Assembly: GCA_964603585.1 (NCBI GenBank) | Contig: CAZRVK010000005.1 | Location: 18,609-71,274, forward strand | Direction of reading: 5' to 3' | DNA from: an uncultured Planctomycetales bacterium | GTDB lineage: Bacteria; Omnitrophota; Gorgyraeia; Gygaellales; Profunditerraquicolaceae | DNA length: 52,666 nt | Part shown: piece after piece, positions 12,344-19,755 of the stretch | Layout: every line of letters starts with the position of its first letter | Position numbering within the stretch: the first letter of the stretch is position 1 | Position numbers and translations under genes: made by a program | Notes under the pieces: model-generated | Databases searched by the model: none | What the model saw: only the letters and a program-made list of their open reading frames with translations | Told to the model about the DNA's origin: nothing

Positions 12344-12733
12344 ATGAATCTTCGATATTTGGGTAATGACCGGCGCAGGTTTCAGCGGCTAAATGTCAAT
12401 CTTTCGGTTTTTTATAAGGTGGTATCTCCGCTTGCGGCCCGTTTCTTGACTATGGACCGCGAGGTCGAAGCTGTCACTTTGGATATTAGCGGAGGGGGGA
12501 TGGCTTTTTTGAGCCGGTATAATATTCCGGTTAAAGCTATATTGAATATGCGTTTTATTTTATTTAAGATGGATAAGGAAGGTTTAGTCAGTTTCAATGA
12601 TCCTGTCGAAGTAACTGCCGAGGTGCGTTCTAATGTAAGCGCGCAAAACTCCAAAGAATACCGCCTGGGGGTTTATTTTAAGGGGATAAAAGAAGAAACT
12701 AAAGCCGGCCTAACCGATTTCTGCCGGATATAA
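12344..12733 (+). CDS. PilZ-domain protein (c-di-GMP receptor)
   Basis: RRRFQR (RxxxR) and DISGGG (D/NxSxxG); GGGAGG RBS. Confidence 0.9.
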   Translation: MNLRYLGNDRRRFQRLNVNLSVFYKVVSPLAARFLTMDREVEAVTLDISGGGMAFLSRYNIPVKAILNMRFILFKMDKEGLVSFNDPVEVTAEVRSNVSAQNSKEYRLGVYFKGIKEETKAGLTDFCRI

Positions 12734-12771
12734 AAGGTTTTATAAAATAAATGGTATTTGTTTCTTTGGGG

Positions 12772-13230
12772 CTATTTAAACAGGATCTTATCGGCGGCGG
12801 TTATTTCTCCACAAAAGATCCATAATGAGGTTTGCAGGCGCTCATCTTCAAGGCGGATGATTTTGCCGTCTTTTTGGATGTTTTGCCCTTTTTCCAGGTC
12901 TTTTACTTTGTCTTTATCTTTGAAAAGAAAGATTACCTGGTAGGGTGAGTTGTTTTTGGTTTTTAGTTGTTCTGTCGTAACCTGATAGTAAGTTGCGCCA
13001 ACATCGTTTGCAGTATCGAATGAATTATATACCTGGACATTGTTTACCTGGCCGCTTGCAGAGATCTCTTTACCGGTAGAGTCCGCTGATATTTGGGCTT
13101 TTTGTAAGCTGGTCGCTTTCTGGAAATCATCTATAATGTTTTCTACCGCAAGCTGCGCAGCATAAGAGAAGCTGCTTATTAATAATGCGCATAACATAAA
13201 TAAAAACCCGCGTATCAGTTTATTTTTCAT
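12772..13230 (-). CDS. Secreted protein, possible OB-fold
   Basis: GGAGGA RBS; signal peptide ending SYA; ISASGQV..DLEKGQNI pattern reminiscent of extracytoplasmic OB folds. Confidence 0.75.
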   Translation of the reverse strand: MKNKLIRGFLFMLCALLISSFSYAAQLAVENIIDDFQKATSLQKAQISADSTGKEISASGQVNNVQVYNSFDTANDVGATYYQVTTEQLKTKNNSPYQVIFLFKDKDKVKDLEKGQNIQKDGKIIRLEDERLQTSLWIFCGEITAADKILFK

Positions 13231-13263
13231 TTGTTCCTCCTTATTATTTTTCAGTCTAATTGT

Positions 13264-13291
13264 ATTTTATCCTTCAAAAAGCAATTTGCAA
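13264..13291 (-). promoter_or_regulatory. Divergent sigma70-like promoter
   Basis: TTGCAA-16-TAAAAT on minus strand. Confidence 0.4.
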
Positions 13292-13311
13292 GTGTTTTTT
13301 TGGAAAAATGC

Positions 13312-13340
13312 TTGACAATTGTATGCGTTAAGTATATAAA
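13312..13340 (+). promoter_or_regulatory. Sigma70 promoter of efflux operon
   Basis: TTGACA-17-TATAAA. Confidence 0.75.
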
Positions 13341-13381
13341 TATATGTAATAAATATATATCTATATATGAAAAGCATACAA
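13319..13381. promoter_or_regulatory. Candidate operator: inverted half-sites TTGTATGCGTT / AAAGCATACAA
   Basis: 13319-13329 and 13371-13381 are reverse complements at 10/11 positions. Confidence 0.45.
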
Positions 13382-13396
13382 CCCGGCGTGATGCCG

Positions 13397-14986
13397 ATGA
13401 AGTTTTCCCAGAATGCGGTAAAGATACTGGGGCTTTTTTATTCCCACCCAAAAGAGCAATTCTATATTCATCAGTTAGGCCGCCTGCTAAAAAAGAAACC
13501 CGGGGTTTTTCAGCGGGTCCTGTATAATCTTGAGAAGCAAGGGGTTCTAAAAAGCCGGTTTTTAGCCAATGCCCGGTATTTTAGCCTGAATGAGAAGTAT
13601 CCGTTTTATAAGGAGCTTAAGAGTATTATTCAGAAAATGACCCCGGTCATATCCCTGGTTTTTCTTTTGAATACGTTATTAATTTCTCCGAATACCGCCT
13701 TTTGCGATAATGAAATTCTCCAGACTCTTGAACTCTCTTCTTTTTCGGAAGCGGCTAAGATAGCGCTTAAGAATAATAAAGATATCCAGATCCAGGAGCA
13801 GGCGCTGAATATAGCCAGTGCAGATATTTTGAATGCAAAAAGCGAGTTTTTGCCTAAAGTGGATTTTAACTCAAGCTATACACATAATGGCGCGGTGCTT
13901 CATTCTGGAAACTCTACTGCCGCCAAGAAGGACCCCGGGATATTTTCCGGTTTCAAGAACGATAATGCTCTGGGGATAAGCGTCAGCGAAACTGTTTATA
14001 ACGGCGGTGCAAACACTGCTCTCCTTCGCCAGGCACAGCTTGCTTTAAAAGAACAGACACAAACCCTAAGGGCTACCAGGCTCAATGTTGAACTGGAAGC
14101 AAAAAGGCTTTATTATGGCTTGTTGCTTGCTTATGAGACACGGCGTATCGCCGCTAATCTCATTCAGCAGGCCCAGAGCCATTATGAACAGATAAAGCAA
14201 AACCTCTCCCAGGGGACATCTTCGCGGTTTGATCTTCTGCAATCCAAAGTGCAGGTTTCACTTCTTATGCCTCAATTGATCAATGCCGATAATTCCATAG
14301 ATTTGATAGTAGCAGAGTTTAATAAACTTTTAGGCAGGAATGTAATGGCTAAGATTATTGTTGTCGATAAATTGAATTATGAGCCTTTTGAAATTAAAGA
14401 ATCGGATTTCTTGAAAGAGGCTTATTTGAATGAGCCGGAAATGATCTTAAGGTCACTGGGCATAGATATCAGCAAGTGGGCGGTTAAATACGCCCGTGCC
14501 GGATGGCTGCCGCAGGTTGAGGCGGGTGCGGATTATTCATACAGGTCCAATAACCTGGGGAATATGGTTAACAGTAAGCATAATAACTGGAACATTGGTT
14601 TTACTGTGCGTGTACCGATATTCGATGGGTTCTCCACTAAGGCCAAGGTAGATGCTGCCCGGGCAAAATATATGCAGTCAGTGATCGGCAAGGATAATTA
14701 CGCTGATCAGGTGGCAGTGGATGTCAGGCAGGCCTGTCTTGATCTTAAGCAGGCGAGCGCGATCATTGAATCTCAAAGGGATAATTTAGAGGATGCCAGT
14801 GAAGCATTGGAGATCTCCTACGTTCGTTACAATAATGGTGTGGGGATAAACCTGGATGTAATGGATGCCCAGGTTTCTTTGGCGAATGTGGAAAAGAACT
14901 TTGCCGAGGGTGTTTATGACTATATTATGGCAAAGGCAAAACTGGATAGGTTAATGGGCAAGGGCGGGATCGAGGAGGCCAAATGA
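13397..14986 (+). CDS. Winged-HTH::TolC-family outer-membrane efflux protein fusion
   Basis: First ~80 aa wHTH-like (FYIHQLGRLL..PGVFQRVLYNLEKQGVL..NARYFSLN); internal signal-like segment from 13637; two OEP repeats (ALKNNKDI, FLPKVDF, WLPQV, VPIFDG). Confidence 0.85.
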   Translation: MKFSQNAVKILGLFYSHPKEQFYIHQLGRLLKKKPGVFQRVLYNLEKQGVLKSRFLANARYFSLNEKYPFYKELKSIIQKMTPVISLVFLLNTLLISPNTAFCDNEILQTLELSSFSEAAKIALKNNKDIQIQEQALNIASADILNAKSEFLPKVDFNSSYTHNGAVLHSGNSTAAKKDPGIFSGFKNDNALGISVSETVYNGGANTALLRQAQLALKEQTQTLRATRLNVELEAKRLYYGLLLAYETRRIAANLIQQAQSHYEQIKQNLSQGTSSRFDLLQSKVQVSLLMPQLINADNSIDLIVAEFNKLLGRNVMAKIIVVDKLNYEPFEIKESDFLKEAYLNEPEMILRSLGIDISKWAVKYARAGWLPQVEAGADYSYRSNNLGNMVNSKHNNWNIGFTVRVPIFDGFSTKAKVDAARAKYMQSVIGKDNYADQVAVDVRQACLDLKQASAIIESQRDNLEDASEALEISYVRYNNGVGINLDVMDAQVSLANVEKNFAEGVYDYIMAKAKLDRLMGKGGIEEAK

Positions 14987-15816
14987 AAAAAAGATTGAAG
15001 TTTGTGGTTATTGCGATAGTTTTGATCGCGGCAGTTTCTGCAGCCGCTGTTTTCTTTATAAACCAGAGGAACGGCCGTAATAAACTGATCAAGGTCTCCG
15101 GCAACATAGAAGGTGATGATGTGCGTATTTCATTCCGGGTCGCCGGTCAAATCGTAGAACTTCTTACCGATGAGGGGCTGGTAGTAAAAAAAGGCGATAT
15201 TGTCGCCCGCCTGAACAAGGATGAGTTGAGTAAAACCAAGGCGGAGGCGGAGGCATCTTTAAAATACGCCGAGTATCAGTATAAACTCGATCGCGATGAT
15301 TATATTCGGGCGGAAAATCTTTTTAAGGCCGGGGCGATTTCCGAACAAAAACGCGATGCCGCTAAAACCCGCATGGATACCGATTACGCCAATATTAAAC
15401 AGCTGCGTGCTTCTCTGGAACTGGCCAATACTAAATTAGGCTGGACCGATCTTGCCAGCCCGCTTGATGGCTATATCCTGGTAAAGAGTTCTTTGGCTGG
15501 TGAGGTGGTACAGGCGGGGACACCGGTTTTTACCGCCGTTAATCTCGATGAAGTCTGGGTTACCGCTTATATCAGCGAGTCGGATTTAGGTAAGGTCAAG
15601 TTAGGCCAAAAGGCTTATGTCCAGACTGACAGTTATAAGGATAAGCGTTATAACGGCTGGATCTCATTTATCTCGAATCAGGCAGAATTCACTCCTAAAT
15701 ATATCCAGACTTCCGAGGAACGGGTCAAGTATGTTTACCGCATAAAAGTCCGGGTCGATAATTCAAGCCTGGAATTAAAACCCGGAATGCCCGCGGATGC
15801 CTATATTATTGAATAA
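14983..15816 (+). CDS. HlyD/MFP efflux adaptor (YbhG-like)
   Basis: VSGNIE, GQIVELL..EG..VKKG, SPLDG, AEFTPKYIQT, LKPGMPAD. Confidence 0.93.
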   Translation: MKKRLKFVVIAIVLIAAVSAAAVFFINQRNGRNKLIKVSGNIEGDDVRISFRVAGQIVELLTDEGLVVKKGDIVARLNKDELSKTKAEAEASLKYAEYQYKLDRDDYIRAENLFKAGAISEQKRDAAKTRMDTDYANIKQLRASLELANTKLGWTDLASPLDGYILVKSSLAGEVVQAGTPVFTAVNLDEVWVTAYISESDLGKVKLGQKAYVQTDSYKDKRYNGWISFISNQAEFTPKYIQTSEERVKYVYRIKVRVDNSSLELKPGMPADAYIIE

Positions 15817-15819
15817 CGC

Positions 15820-16557
15820 ATGATCACCATTAAGACGGAAAATCTCACCCGCAAGTTCGGGGAATTGACTGCCTTGGACAGCCTGGATCTTGAAGTAAGT
15901 GAAGGCGAGATCTTTGGCCTGGTTGGTCCTGACGGGGCAGGTAAAACTACCACTATGCGCCTTTTAACCGGGATCCTGGATCCGACTGCCGGGCAAGCCT
16001 GGGTTTATGATAAGCATACGTTTAAGGAATCCGAAGCCCTAAAAGAAAATATCGCTTATATGTCCCAGCGATTCGGGCTTTACGAGGAATTAAGCGTTCA
16101 GGAGAATATAAATTTCTACGCCGATATTTACGGCGTAGATAAAAAAAAACGCGTTGAAACGATCGACCGGTTGCTTGAGTTTTCTGGACTCCTGCCTTTT
16201 AAACAGCGTTTTGCCGGTAAGCTTTCCGGAGGGATGAAGCAGAAGTTAGGTTTGGCCTGTGCTTTGATCCATACCCCAAAAGTTTTATTTCTGGATGAAC
16301 CCACTAATGGGGTTGATCCGGTTTCCCGCCGTGATTTCTGGAATATCCTCTATGATTTGCTTAAGGAGAAAGTCACCATCTTCTGCTCTACCTGTTATCT
16401 GGATGAAGCCGAACGCTGCGGCCGGGTGGGGCTTATGCATAAGGGCCGGCTTTTACGTTGTGACCCTCCGGGTAAGATTAAAAAGGAATACAATGCTAAA
16501 ACCCTGGAAGAGGCGTTTGTTATTATTATCAAGGAATATGAAGGAAAACACTCTTAA
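15820..16557 (+). CDS. ABC ATP-binding protein (YbhF N-half-like)
   Basis: GPDGAGKTT, LSGGMKQK, LFLDEP; H-loop reads STCY. Confidence 0.93.
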   Translation: MITIKTENLTRKFGELTALDSLDLEVSEGEIFGLVGPDGAGKTTTMRLLTGILDPTAGQAWVYDKHTFKESEALKENIAYMSQRFGLYEELSVQENINFYADIYGVDKKKRVETIDRLLEFSGLLPFKQRFAGKLSGGMKQKLGLACALIHTPKVLFLDEPTNGVDPVSRRDFWNILYDLLKEKVTIFCSTCYLDEAERCGRVGLMHKGRLLRCDPPGKIKKEYNAKTLEEAFVIIIKEYEGKHS

Positions 16558-17503
16558 CAATATCGCGGTTAGCGTATCTGATTTGGAGAAAAAATTCGGA
16601 GGATTTGTTGCGGTTAACCGGATTAATTTCGCTGTCAACCAAGGAGAGATCTTTGGTTTTTTAGGGCCTAACGGTGCGGGAAAATCTACCACCATCAGGA
16701 TGCTTTGCGGGATACTTAAGCCTACCTCCGGCAGCGGCAAGGTGGGGGGATTCGATATAATCAAGGAACAGGATAAAATAAAGGAAAATATCGGGTATAT
16801 GTCGCAAAAGTTTTCACTCTATAACGATTTGACTATCGAGGAGAATATTAATTTCTACAGCGGTATATACAAAATCCCTAAGAAGGACAAAGAGTCTCGT
16901 TTCAAAGAAACTATTCTTACTGCCGGCCTTGAAGGTATGGAGTCAAACCTGACCGCGACACTTGCCGGTGGATGGAAACAGCGGCTTGCCCTGGGGTGCG
17001 CGCTAATTCATAAGCCAAAGATAATCTTTCTCGATGAGCCTACTTCCGGGGTTGATCCGATAACCCGCGCTAACTTTTGGGGGGTAATTAAGGGCCTGGC
17101 CGCGCAAGGGGTAACGGTTTTTGTCACCACGCATTATATGGATGAAGCGGAAAACTGTAATCGCATGGTGATCATTTATCACGGAACGATTATTGCCAGC
17201 GGTACTCCCCAGGAGATGAAAACCAAATGTATGAAAAATGATGTGCTTGAGATAACCTTAGCTGATGCGCAAAAGTGGCTTGAGAAGATCAGTAAGATCA
17301 AAGGGATCAAAGAAGCGGCGCTTTTCGGGGCCAATATCCATACAGTTGTCGATGACAGCGCTCAAGCTATCCCTGAACTAAAAGAGTTCTTGAAAAAAGA
17401 GAATATAGGGGAGTTCAGTGTGAATAAGATCCTCCCTTCGCTAGAGGATGTGTTTGTTTCATCAATAGAGAATTATGATCGTTCAGAGCTTAAAAAGAAT
17501 TAG
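16538..17503 (+). CDS. ABC ATP-binding protein (YbhF C-half-like)
   Basis: GPNGAGKST, LAGGWKQR, FLDEP, TTHY; ATG 16538 with AAGGA RBS preferred over 16295. Confidence 0.93.
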   Translation: MKENTLNNIAVSVSDLEKKFGGFVAVNRINFAVNQGEIFGFLGPNGAGKSTTIRMLCGILKPTSGSGKVGGFDIIKEQDKIKENIGYMSQKFSLYNDLTIEENINFYSGIYKIPKKDKESRFKETILTAGLEGMESNLTATLAGGWKQRLALGCALIHKPKIIFLDEPTSGVDPITRANFWGVIKGLAAQGVTVFVTTHYMDEAENCNRMVIIYHGTIIASGTPQEMKTKCMKNDVLEITLADAQKWLEKISKIKGIKEAALFGANIHTVVDDSAQAIPELKEFLKKENIGEFSVNKILPSLEDVFVSSIENYDRSELKKN

Positions 17504-18617
17504 AGCTATCGCTTTAAAAGAGTTTATTCAGATCAAACGTGATCCGCGCAGCCTTGGCCTTGCGCTGGGGATCCCGATATTCCTTTTGCTCATTTTTGGC
17601 TATGGACTTTCTTTGGATATTGATCATGTACGCACGGTGATTTGGAACCAGGACGCTTCTTCAAAAGTTACGCGGGATTTCCTGCTCAATTTCAAGAATT
17701 CAAAATATTTCAATATTGTCGGGTATACGGATAATTACCGGGATATCCAGCATATGATAGACAGCGCAGAGGTGATGATGGCGATAGTGGTCCCTAAGGA
17801 TTTCTCACGTTATTTGGAATCCGGCAAGACTGCCCAGTTGCAGCTGATCGTAGATGGCAGTGATGCCAATACTGCGACTATCGCGATGGGGTATGTGCGT
17901 ACAGTGGTTGCCAATTATAACGTTTCGTTATTGAACACTGCCTTTGAATCGCATGGGTTTTTGCCTCCCCGGGCAGTGGATGCTCGATCGAGAGTCTGGT
18001 TCAATATGGGATTGACCAGTACCTGGTTTATCGTCCCTGGGGTAATTGCGATGATCATTATGATCATCGCCGCTCTTTTGACATCTATCTGTATTGCCCG
18101 GGAGTGGGAAAGAGGTACGATGGAACAGTTGATTTCTACTCCGGTAAAAGCGCCGGAACTGGTAATCGGTAAGTTTCTGCCATACTTTGCCATTGGTTTC
18201 TTCGATCTGGCGGTAGGGGTGTTGATGGCCAGGTTTTTATTCCATGTTCCTTTCCGGGGGAGTTATTTTTTACTTATCATCTTAAGCGCGCTTTTTCTTA
18301 CCGGGGCTTTATCGCAGGGGATATTGATCTCGGTAGTTGCCCGGACACAGCTCATGGCCTCTCAAATGGCCAGTTTGACTACGATGATCCCGACAATAAT
18401 CCTTTCCGGGTTTATCTATCCGATATTCAATATGCCCAAGGCGCTTCAGTTGGTCACCTATTTTATCCCTGCACGCTATTATATTATCGTAAACCGGGAG
18501 TTATTCTTAAAAGGAGGAGGGATCTCCACATTGTGGGATGATGCGATATTCCTGCTGTTGTTTGCTTTGATAATGTTTTTTTTGGCGGTAAAGAAATTCA
18601 AGAAGAAAGTAGCCTAA
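17475..18617 (+). CDS. ABC-2 permease (YbhS-like)
   Basis: KEFIQIKRD, VDGSDANTA, REWERGTMEQL, GKFLPY. Confidence 0.93.
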   Translation: MIVQSLKRIRAIALKEFIQIKRDPRSLGLALGIPIFLLLIFGYGLSLDIDHVRTVIWNQDASSKVTRDFLLNFKNSKYFNIVGYTDNYRDIQHMIDSAEVMMAIVVPKDFSRYLESGKTAQLQLIVDGSDANTATIAMGYVRTVVANYNVSLLNTAFESHGFLPPRAVDARSRVWFNMGLTSTWFIVPGVIAMIIMIIAALLTSICIAREWERGTMEQLISTPVKAPELVIGKFLPYFAIGFFDLAVGVLMARFLFHVPFRGSYFLLIILSALFLTGALSQGILISVVARTQLMASQMASLTTMIPTIILSGFIYPIFNMPKALQLVTYFIPARYYIIVNRELFLKGGGISTLWDDAIFLLLFALIMFFLAVKKFKKKVA

Positions 18618-18627
18618 GAGGAGACTG

Positions 18628-19755
18628 ATGTTTGAACGTGCCAGAGCGATATTTATAAAGGAATTCAAACAGATCTTCCGCGACCCGCGGATGAAGACGG
18701 TTATTTTTATCAGTCCTCTTTTTCAGATCATTTTGTTCGGATATGCCGCCAATAAAGATATTAACTATGTTCCTACCGCTATCTTTGACCGTGATAATAC
18801 TGTAGAGAGCCGTGAGCTTTTACGCAGGTTTACCTTTTCCAAGTATTTTGTCCCGAAAAAATATATTTATAATGAGCCCGAACAGGACTATCTTTTAAAC
18901 AGGGGTGAGGTGATCTCGGTCATTCATATTGACCGGGGGTTTGGCCGTGCACTTAACGCCGGTAAGCCTGCGAACATACAATTATCCTTTGACGGATCGG
19001 ATTCAAATACTGCGATGATCGTAATGGGCTATGCCAATACCATTATCAGCCAATACCAGTATGATGTGTTAAGGCAAAAGGCTGCGTTAAAAGGGCTAAT
19101 TGCAAGTGTCGCGAATGTGGAGTTGAGGGACCGGGCCTGGTTTAACGGCAATCTTGTTTCGACTAATTACTATCTGCCGGGGGTGATTGCGACTGTCGTA
19201 ACCATGATGTCTTTATTGTTGAGCGCTATGGCGATCGTCAAAGAAAAAGAGATCGGCACGATGGAACAGCTTATTGTCAGCCCGTTAAAGCCGATCGAAC
19301 TGATTGTAGGCAAACTGCTTCCATTCGGGATCATTGCGCTTATTCAGATCACCCTGGTTACATTACTCGGAGTGCTTTGGTTTCACGTCCCTTTAAGAGG
19401 CAACCTTATATTTCTGTTGTTTTCCACCTGTATATATTTATTCACTACTTTAGGCATAGGCTTGTTTATCTCTACGGTATCTGCGACCCAGCAGGAAGCG
19501 ATGATGTCGGTGTTCCTTTTTTATATGCCAACCGTTCTTTTATCGGGGTTTGCTTATCCGATCAATAATATGCCCAAGTTGATCCAGTGGTTTACTGTTT
19601 TCAATCCCTTACGCTATTTTATGGTGCTTATCCGCAGTATTTTCTTAAAAGGTATCGGGATCGAGATCCTCTGGACCCAACTTTTGCCATTACTGTTGAT
19701 GGGGGTATTAGTGATCACTTTCAGCACAATCCGTTTTAAGCGGAGTATGGGATAA
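18628..19755 (+). CDS. ABC-2 permease (YbhR-like)
   Basis: KEFKQIFRD, DGSDSNTA, KEKEIGTMEQL, NPLRYF. Confidence 0.93.
   Translation: MFERARAIFIKEFKQIFRDPRMKTVIFISPLFQIILFGYAANKDINYVPTAIFDRDNTVESRELLRRFTFSKYFVPKKYIYNEPEQDYLLNRGEVISVIHIDRGFGRALNAGKPANIQLSFDGSDSNTAMIVMGYANTIISQYQYDVLRQKAALKGLIASVANVELRDRAWFNGNLVSTNYYLPGVIATVVTMMSLLLSAMAIVKEKEIGTMEQLIVSPLKPIELIVGKLLPFGIIALIQITLVTLLGVLWFHVPLRGNLIFLLFSTCIYLFTTLGIGLFISTVSATQQEAMMSVFLFYMPTVLLSGFAYPINNMPKLIQWFTVFNPLRYFMVLIRSIFLKGIGIEILWTQLLPLLLMGVLVITFSTIRFKRSMG

Follow-up and report, generated by a model that had tools for sequence, protein, structure and literature searches.

The DNA analysed here, referred to below as the window, is a stretch of 52,666 nucleotides from contig CAZRVK010000005.1 of an uncultured Planctomycetales bacterium (GenBank assembly GCA_964603585.1, positions 18,609 to 71,274 of the forward strand), which GTDB places in the Omnitrophota. 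It carries a gene, here called wHTH-TolC, in which a winged helix-turn-helix (wHTH) domain, a signal-peptide-like hydrophobic segment and a complete outer-membrane factor of the TolC family follow one another in a single reading frame. The gene opens an efflux operon that includes its own outer-membrane factor and otherwise has the composition of the ybhGFSR type, in which a membrane fusion protein, one or more ABC ATPases and two ABC-2 permeases are encoded together. A promoter with three predicted operators lies upstream, followed by a divergent gene. The features are listed in Table 1.

Table 1. Features of the wHTH-TolC locus (window positions) and a palindrome pair seen in relatives (positions within the named loci)
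Feature	Position	Strand	Basis and remarks
PilZ-domain protein, 129 aa	12344-12733	+	Pfam, E 1.6e-10
Divergent 152-aa protein	12772-13230	-	own predicted signal peptide MKNKLIRGFLFMLCALLISSFSYA, cut before AQ; no Pfam match
Sigma-70-type promoter (predicted)	13312-13340	+	-35 TTGACA 13312-13317, 17-nt spacer, -10 TATAAA 13335-13340; read by eye, conservation
Operator O1 (predicted), TGTATGCGTTAAGTATATA	13320-13338	+	two mismatches to consensus; within -35/-10 spacer, overlaps -10
Operator O2 (predicted), TATATGTAATAAATATATA	13341-13359	+	21 bp after O1; over expected transcription start
Operator O3 (predicted), TATATATGAAAAGCATACA	13362-13380	+	21 bp after O2; holds ATG 13367
wHTH domain, 80 aa (MKFSQN...KSIIQK)	13397-13636	+	AF2, Foldseek, identity, dN/dS
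Internal Sec-type signal-peptide-like segment, 23 aa, MTPVISLVFLLNTLLISPNTAFC	13637-13705	+	predicted signal peptidase I cut after A-F-C, before DNE
Mature TolC-family outer-membrane factor, 426 aa plus stop	13706-14986	+	Pfam OEP, PDB matches, AF2
HlyD-type membrane fusion protein	14983-15816	+	Pfam HlyD_D23, HlyD_3; start overlaps TolC stop (ATGA)
ABC ATPase 1	15820-16557	+	Pfam ABC_tran; conserved in relatives
ABC ATPase 2	16538-17503	+	Pfam ABC_tran plus DrrA1-3_C; start from translation of the reading frame
Two ABC-2 permeases	17475-19755 (17475-18617 and 18628-19755)	+	Pfam ABC2_membrane_3
Second palindrome pair, relatives	L005 2775-2815; L013 3187-3227; L014 2770-2810; L015 3323-3363		
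Second palindrome pair, relatives	L028 3187-3227; L029 3319-3359; L030 3185-3225; L033 3046-3086		

A winged-helix domain in frame with TolC

Frame +2 is open from 13367 to the stop codon at 14984-14986 (539 aa), and the first part of this open reading frame (ORF) offers in-frame ATGs at 13367, 13391 and 13397. The ATG at 13367 is an unlikely start codon because it lies inside the conserved operator O3. Homologous proteins begin with M-x-x-FSKN, their methionine standing two to three residues ahead of the conserved F-S-K-N. Since the N-termini of the homologs fit and O3 covers the first ATG, translation most likely starts at 13397 (or 13391), which agrees with the choice of 13397 in the original prediction and would give a precursor of 529 aa from 13397. 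That prediction, made from the letters of the DNA and their translation, had described about 80 aa of wHTH-like sequence that run without a stop into a signal-like segment with an AFC cleavage site and then into a complete TolC, with an internal ATG at 13637 that has no ribosome-binding site nearby. The order of the parts is borne out by the translation of the ORF and by the homologs, the anatomy of the segment by a rule-based check of 117 homologs, and the remark on the internal ATG by the 16 nt ahead of it, which hold no 4-mer resembling a Shine-Dalgarno sequence. The in-frame fusion observed in the window is confirmed as genuine.

With regards to the N-terminal domain, no Pfam family and hence no curated helix-turn-helix model matched the first 90 aa of the window's protein at E<=1. 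A profile made from the wHTH alignment returned, from the PDB sequences, noise from inositol phosphatases and weak matches to transcriptional regulators (E about 0.09). It is thus the predicted structure and the family profile that carry the wHTH assignment, and more distant members of this profile family do reach Pfam HTH_24, MarR_2 and HTH_5. The AlphaFold2 (AF2) model, calculated from a 40-sequence alignment, reached a predicted local distance difference test score (pLDDT) of 91.7 and has the topology of a winged helix, namely H1, a short strand, H2, H3, a beta-hairpin wing and H4 (helices at 6-17, 25-32, 36-48 and 72-80, strands at 52-57 and 60-65). A Foldseek search of this model against the PDB led to the MarR/ArsR-type repressors MepR, HlyU, SqrR, ZitR, SmtB/CzrA and MexR, with TM-scores, normalised to query length, of 0.70-0.78 and E values of 1.6e-4 to 3e-3. 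The modelling supports a winged-helix DNA-binding fold that is MarR/ArsR-like.

The C-terminal part is a complete TolC outer-membrane factor by its repeats as well as by its fold and partner genes. Two OEP repeats (TolC family, PF02321) cover the C-terminal 430 aa or so with an E value of 5e-69, and the mature part matches the PDB chains of SilC, CmeC, TolC and CusC over residues 13-423. The AF2 model places strands at 164-173, 198-211, 383-394 and 406-415 and contains helices of about 65 residues.

Among 64 full-length homologs, mean pairwise identity amounts to 65% in the wHTH, 19% in the hydrophobic segment and 64% in TolC. By this comparison, the middle segment is held only to its physical character and not to its sequence. 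The ratio of nonsynonymous to synonymous substitution rates (dN/dS) of the N-terminal domain inside fused genes was 0.01-0.065 for closely related pairs, and this low ratio argues that the domain is translated and selected as a protein. To judge from these substitution patterns, the wHTH of the fused genes is under strong purifying selection.

A search with the full-length protein yielded over 100 homologs in the Omnitrophota (54-72% identity, 516-562 aa), named "TolC family protein" or "outer membrane protein TolC" by NCBI and JGI. They cover 94-99% of the query, a coverage that takes in the N-terminal extension. For a survey of loci, one genome per GTDB species was scanned with the N-terminal domain, resulting in 80 loci. 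The domain continues in frame and without a stop into a full TolC in 47 of these species representatives (500-558 aa; 752 aa in L047), and it is in frame up to the contig end in two further loci. One fused locus, L048, belongs to the closed chromosome of Candidatus Velamenicoccus archaeovorus LiM (NZ_CP019384.1). An assembly or frameshift artefact was rejected, as the fusion recurs in independent assemblies and in this closed genome. HlyD comes directly after TolC in all fused and split loci, and the downstream ABC ATPase is kept in all fused ones. Three loci are irregular: the ORF of L047 (993-3248) reads on from TolC into HlyD, the TolC of L019 (2058-3188) is truncated at 376 aa, and the ORF of L023 (4001-4414) stops 138 aa in, just past the first TolC helix. 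Assembly errors or pseudogenes are the probable explanation.

In a few lineages, the two parts are separate genes. The wHTH of L002, on a 714-kb JGI contig, ends after 82 aa, and a 455-aa TolC with a textbook signal peptide (MMKKINLCFALIFLISQTGLC, cut before QE) starts 19 nt later in another frame, in the same operon as in the fused loci and behind a five-site operator array; the independent Logan assembly L003 shows the same arrangement. An in-frame stop (L031) or a frame change (L049) divides the wHTH from a TolC with its own start in two further loci, and in L001/L051 the wHTH is followed by a truncated TolC remnant. The split lineages have a free wHTH of 82-89 aa and a TolC with its own canonical signal peptide, with operon and operators unchanged, which shows, as far as gene arrangement can, that the free wHTH is a workable form of the regulator and that separate expression works. 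When the TolC part was used for a neighbour-joining tree, the three split forms came out apart from one another within fused clades, and the deepest branches were fused. Given this placement, the fused state appears to be ancestral in this TolC clade and to have been split secondarily at least three times.

The original prediction had proposed a search of related genomes for wHTH-signal-TolC genes and for the same arrangement with other partners, and had named a stop or frameshift between the two parts in relatives as what would speak against it. The first architecture was found in the over 100 homologs and in 47 of the 80 loci, and the second was not encountered in an exhaustive profile search of the wHTH family. 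A stop or frameshift does occur, in the minority formed by L002/L003, L031 and L049, while the 47 loci are fused. The split lineages do not make the fusion an error, but they show that it is not indispensable.

The exhaustive search returned 1668 cluster representatives at E<=1e-3. Most commonly, the domain is the N-terminal module of nucleotidyltransferase proteins of about 190 aa; it also occurs as stand-alone proteins of 82-94 aa and fused to zeta-toxin-like kinases, a MEDS domain, a DNA methylase, FN3 repeats and K/E-rich tails. Partners are mostly cytoplasmic, and the FN3-repeat protein (P0206) has no obvious hydrophobic segment. By its range of partners, the family is a portable N-terminal DNA-binding module. 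The nucleotidyltransferase and stand-alone forms, known from Omnitrophota, Aminicenantes, Firestonebacteria and Planctomycetota, belong to the same family (profile E down to 1e-39) and have the same phased palindromes upstream. They differ in that the partner domains are cytoplasmic and pose no topological problem; only in the TolC fusion does the domain precede a signal sequence. The nucleotidyltransferase and zeta-toxin-like partners suggest modules of the toxin-antitoxin type.

The junction and the operators

In the window, the junction reads QK-MTPVISLVFLLNTLLI-SPNTAFC, followed by DNE, with a positive n-region and a hydrophobic core of 13 aa. The anatomy of this segment was scored by rules in the 117 homologs. 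They share an uncharged stretch of 13-25 residues (mean 19.5) with a strongly hydrophobic core, a net charge of +2/+3 ahead of it (110/117), Pro or Gly within the last eight positions (95/117) and small residues at -3/-1 just ahead of the first acidic residues (101/117), and the Velamenicoccus clade ends in a textbook A-Q-A site (...ACAPAQA, cut before A). Rule-based scoring supports the n/h/c anatomy and the (-3,-1) site of a signal peptidase I substrate. The h-region begins about 85 residues after the start codon and not at the extreme N-terminus, as in an ordinary Sec signal peptide, and only 0-4 residues link helix H4 to the hydrophobic core. A lipoprotein reading of the frequent G-F-C/A-F-C was rejected, since a lipobox, L-[ASTVI]-[GAS]-C, calls for a small residue at -1, whereas F, Y or L stands ahead of the Cys, which moreover is missing in about half of the homologs.

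The predicted mature N-terminus is located about 8 residues ahead of the first conserved TolC helix (L-S-S-L-K-D-A...) and aligns with that of the independently started TolCs in the split relatives. An AF2 model of the full protein (pLDDT 82, residues counted from 13367) consists of the wHTH, a helix that runs unbroken from 81 to 105 and combines H4 with the hydrophobic core, a disordered stretch (106-117) where the cleavage is predicted and, from residue 121 on, the TolC fold.

The Met at 13637 is kept in only about a fifth of the homologs. The sole AAGGAG in the vicinity (13610-13615) is 21 nt upstream of this ATG and encodes a conserved K-E, and a Shine-Dalgarno-like 4-mer is missing from the 16 nt ahead of each of 11 internal ATGs. 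The stretch from helix H4 to the hydrophobic core contains no in-frame start codon (ATG, GTG or TTG) in 13 fused loci, where TolC can thus be made only as a fusion. Internal initiation at 13637 as a general mechanism was rejected on these two counts; a minor extra product from an internal start may arise in the window or in the Velamenicoccus clade. The latter (L048, L038, L052, L066) keeps V-M-K-Y-E-K-L-F-K-K-G ahead of the hydrophobic core, which looks like the fossil N-terminus, a Met with a basic n-region, of a once-independent TolC signal peptide.

Nearly all homologous loci have a TTGACA-17-(CA)TATAAT layout upstream. The promoter of the window was not listed by the promoter scanner, which needs a T at position 6 of the -10 hexamer, here an A. 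Almost every gene of the wHTH family is preceded by an array of two to five copies of the palindrome TATATGC-N5-GCATATA. Counting a site as a match at 12 or more of the 14 specified positions, 120 palindromes fall into the 10.4 kb of the -130..+5 regions and 25 into the other 539 kb of the loci, a 250-fold enrichment. Their spacing is 21 bp (22 cases), 41-42 bp (22 cases) or about 63 bp, with 21 bp dominant. Arrays were found upstream of 37/44 fused genes, 4/4 split genes and 24/28 mid-length ORFs, the latter being the wHTH plus about 90-220 further residues, mostly of the nucleotidyltransferase type. In the aligned upstream regions, the first palindrome stands between the TTGACA -35 and the -10, which is supplied by its right arm (CATATAAT), and further palindromes cover the transcription start and the 5' untranslated region.

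O1 to O3 are the sole clustered palindrome matches in the window. As they extend over the -35/-10 spacer, the -10, the transcription start and the 5' untranslated region, binding should repress the operon. By its sequence, the promoter with its palindrome array is laid out as an autorepressed promoter, and the fused genes have kept this layout. Accordingly, one would expect the fused wHTH to bind DNA, which is only possible in the cytoplasm. Taken together, the arrangement points to the wHTH as an autoregulator that acts in the cytoplasm, with the palindromes as its putative operators. Rfam had nothing at E<=1 for 12500-15200, and thus no known leader or riboswitch is present there. The operator consensus is common to wHTH genes with unlike partners (L044, L054, L055, L059, L063, L064 and others), so that paralogs within one genome might cross-regulate one another; L058 and L061 hold two copies of the wHTH gene.

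Proposed mechanism, alternatives and related systems

That the fusion is genuine, ancient and under selection is supported by the comparison of the homologous genes. We consider it probable, short of confident, that the operon is controlled by an autorepressor which is synthesised as the n-region, lying in the cytoplasm, of a cleavable signal peptide; its cleavage, its release and its coupling to export are what we infer from sequence and models. The interpretation in the original prediction is supported in part, namely for the architecture, the regulator role of the wHTH and the signal-peptide character of the segment. One precursor of 529 aa would comprise the winged-helix repressor, the Sec signal sequence and the TolC channel. 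The wHTH would fold and stay in the cytoplasm while the internal signal sequence engages Sec in an N-in orientation; the TolC part would be translocated, signal peptidase I would cut after A-F-C, and mature TolC would move on to the outer membrane. A stub of about 103 aa, the wHTH with the spent signal peptide, would be left in the inner membrane facing the cytoplasm, where it would repress the operon while tethered or once freed by an RseP-type intramembrane protease. The n-region of the signal peptide would, in other words, be a transcription factor, supplied once per TolC made.

The dimer interface of ArsR/MarR proteins is built from the terminal helices and lies opposite the DNA-reading face. 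With H4 predicted to run straight into the membrane helix, the DNA-reading face would point away from the membrane, which makes repression from the membrane plausible. RseP cleaves spent signal peptides, that of E. coli TolC included (PMC9360617), and also the membrane-bound wHTH regulators ToxR and TcpP (PMC10202637); by analogy, the stub may be released within the membrane. We hold only tentatively, as something that may well not be so, the finer scheme in which signal peptidase I acts as the site-1 protease, the tethered or released stub represses, and the supply of repressor is set by how many TolC precursors the export machinery has actually engaged and processed. Any special advantage of the fusion is speculative, as an autorepressor encoded by the first gene already gives roughly 1:1 production.

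Several points weigh against an autorepressor carried on a signal peptide. The wHTH start of the window itself has no clear Shine-Dalgarno sequence, a signal sequence some 80 residues from the N-terminus is atypical for a signal peptidase I substrate, and spent signal peptides are usually degraded fast. DNA binding of a tethered stub might be sterically hindered, given the near-absent linker between H4 and the core. With three independent fissions, the fusion is dispensable and perhaps may have no special regulatory meaning. Finally, the whole basis of the proposal consists of sequence, predicted structure and comparative genomics.

It is less likely, yet deserves serious weight, that the fusion is neutral and frozen: a first-gene autorepressor lost its stop and joined the TolC signal peptide, signal peptidase still separates the two, and there is no export-coupled logic. 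Such a state would persist only because going back would require a stop, a start and an n-region to arise anew all at once. It would fit the three lineages in which split forms work with the same operon and operators, a wHTH family promiscuously fused to what it regulates (nucleotidyltransferase, zeta-toxin-like kinase, MEDS and methylase domains), and the fact that a first-gene repressor is already co-produced with TolC. However, the fusion is kept down to about 50% TolC identity and in 47 species representatives with only three reversions, and since reversion is possible, this persistence suggests no cost at least and possibly a benefit. We think it improbable that the wHTH represses mainly as part of the untranslocated precursor and thereby reports a backlog of unexported TolC, with the stub being degraded. 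An N-terminal wHTH would indeed fold before the signal sequence emerges, and the normal fate of spent signal peptides is degradation by RseP, SppA or oligopeptidase A (PMC9360617). On the other hand, the free wHTH of the split lineages would be a constitutively present repressor at the same operators, which argues for steady-state occupancy as the ancestral condition rather than a role confined to stress, and outer-membrane protein precursors are usually short-lived.

The chance that the hydrophobic segment is never cleaved, and anchors TolC permanently to the inner membrane in a ToxR-like topology, appears very slight. An N-terminal wHTH, a single hydrophobic helix and an extracytoplasmic domain do resemble ToxR and CadC, but the core is short (about 13 aa in the window) and followed by a polar c-region with Pro/Gly, and the small -3/-1 residues, the A-Q-A site of the Velamenicoccus clade and the alignment of the mature N-terminus with the split relatives all speak for cleavage. 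Furthermore, about 8 residues up to the first TolC helix are too few to bridge the inner membrane and the equatorial region known from TolC structures, and the AF2 model is disordered exactly at the predicted site. Slighter still is the chance that the wHTH and TolC are made separately, by internal initiation or in a gene wrongly annotated or assembled, even if a Met starts the signal segment in the window and in about a fifth of the homologs and the M-K-Y-E-K-L-F-K-K of the Velamenicoccus clade looks like an old TolC N-terminus. No stop codon intervenes in the 47 species representatives, closed genome included, 13 loci have no start codon at the junction, and the internal ATGs are without Shine-Dalgarno-like motifs; even with internal starts, ribosomes initiated upstream would read through and make the fusion.

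Compared with known systems, wHTH-TolC has functional analogues only: it joins neither the membrane-tethered regulators nor the functional signal peptides nor the long retroviral ones. ToxR, CadC and TcpP likewise combine an N-terminal cytoplasmic winged helix, one membrane-spanning helix and an extracytoplasmic C-terminal part, and ToxR and TcpP are listed as membrane regulators that are RseP substrates (PMC10202637). These proteins have an OmpR-type wHTH, long linkers, permanent anchors and periplasmic sensor domains, whereas here a minimal MarR/ArsR-like fold and a cleavable-looking helix precede a complete outer-membrane channel that must leave. ToxR-like membership was rejected on the fold, which is MarR/ArsR and not OmpR, the predicted cleavage site and the TolC nature of the C-terminal part. 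In dual-function signal peptides, the removed piece regulates as well, as with the enterococcal and staphylococcal pheromones (via signal peptidase II plus Eep/RseP) and MntS from the SitA signal peptide, and such regulatory signal peptides can be processed by an intramembrane protease (PMC10202637; bioRxiv 10.1101/2023.06.02.543501, section 15). They are peptides of 7 to 40 residues acting on receptors or transporters, in contrast to a folded 80-aa DNA-binding domain on its own promoter.

Retroviral Env/Rem signal peptides come closer in size, at about 100 aa with a functional, nucleic-acid-related N-terminal part; that of HERV-K (HML-2) Env, 13 kDa, is set free into the cytosol or nucleus once signal peptidase has cut (PMC2649029). 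These are eukaryotic/viral and depend on the membrane of the endoplasmic reticulum and signal peptide peptidase, do not act as a DNA-binding repressor of their own gene and have no evolutionary relation to the present case. As a local repressor of an adjacent efflux operon, the wHTH resembles CecR (YbiH) of ybhGFSR, MepR and MexR, the latter two being among its best structural matches. E. coli ybhGFSR, whose composition the window operon resembles, is under the separate TetR regulator CecR (PMC12998191); the window operon differs in having its ATPases encoded by two separate genes and a TolC of its own, and in lacking a TetR regulator. CecR, MepR and MexR are separate ligand-sensing proteins of 140-220 aa (TetR or full MarR), whereas the present wHTH has 80 aa, lacks an obvious ligand domain and is joined covalently into the TolC precursor. 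The extended signal peptide region of autotransporters and two-partner secretion proteins is also a conserved N-terminal extension ahead of a normal Sec signal peptide. This region of about 25 aa is unfolded, is thought to modulate targeting and has no DNA-binding domain. In the open-access papers searched, no description was found of a DNA-binding domain ahead of the signal sequence of TolC or another outer-membrane protein.

As a rule, signal peptides are regarded as address labels that are discarded after use. In the present case, a folded DNA-binding domain of 80 aa under strong purifying selection occupies the position of a signal peptide in dozens of species, with its putative operators adjoining, and the second lives of bacterial signal peptides are regarded as an open question (bioRxiv 10.1101/2023.06.02.543501, section 15). 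If the stub is the active repressor, tethered and proteolytically released regulators would extend to signal peptidase substrates, internal signal sequences behind folded domains would be compatible with outer-membrane protein biogenesis, and nature would have provided a design for tying gene expression to export flux. It would be the first case of a bacterial transcription factor arising as a by-product of protein export. Signal-peptide predictors confined to the N-terminus would call wHTH-TolC proteins cytoplasmic. With so well-defined an operator (TATATGC-N5-GCATATA, 21-bp phasing) and so small a domain, the hypothesis lends itself to direct testing in E. coli.

Neighbouring genes

Within the operon, the second ABC ATPase probably starts at ATG 16538 (MKENTL...), with an overlap of 20 nt with the end of the first, while the mechanical ORF list reaches back to 16295. 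On the other side of the promoter, the gene for the divergent 152-aa protein may share the regulatory region with the wHTH-TolC operon, and it is a conserved neighbour of that operon in L005, L013, L015, L028 and L033. The PilZ-domain gene is found just upstream of this secreted-protein gene. In relatives, a second pair of palindromes, 21 bp apart and not present in the window, is located just past the 3' end of the 152-aa gene (Table 1), so that operator pairs stand on both sides of it; these flanking pairs could reflect DNA looping or a second promoter.

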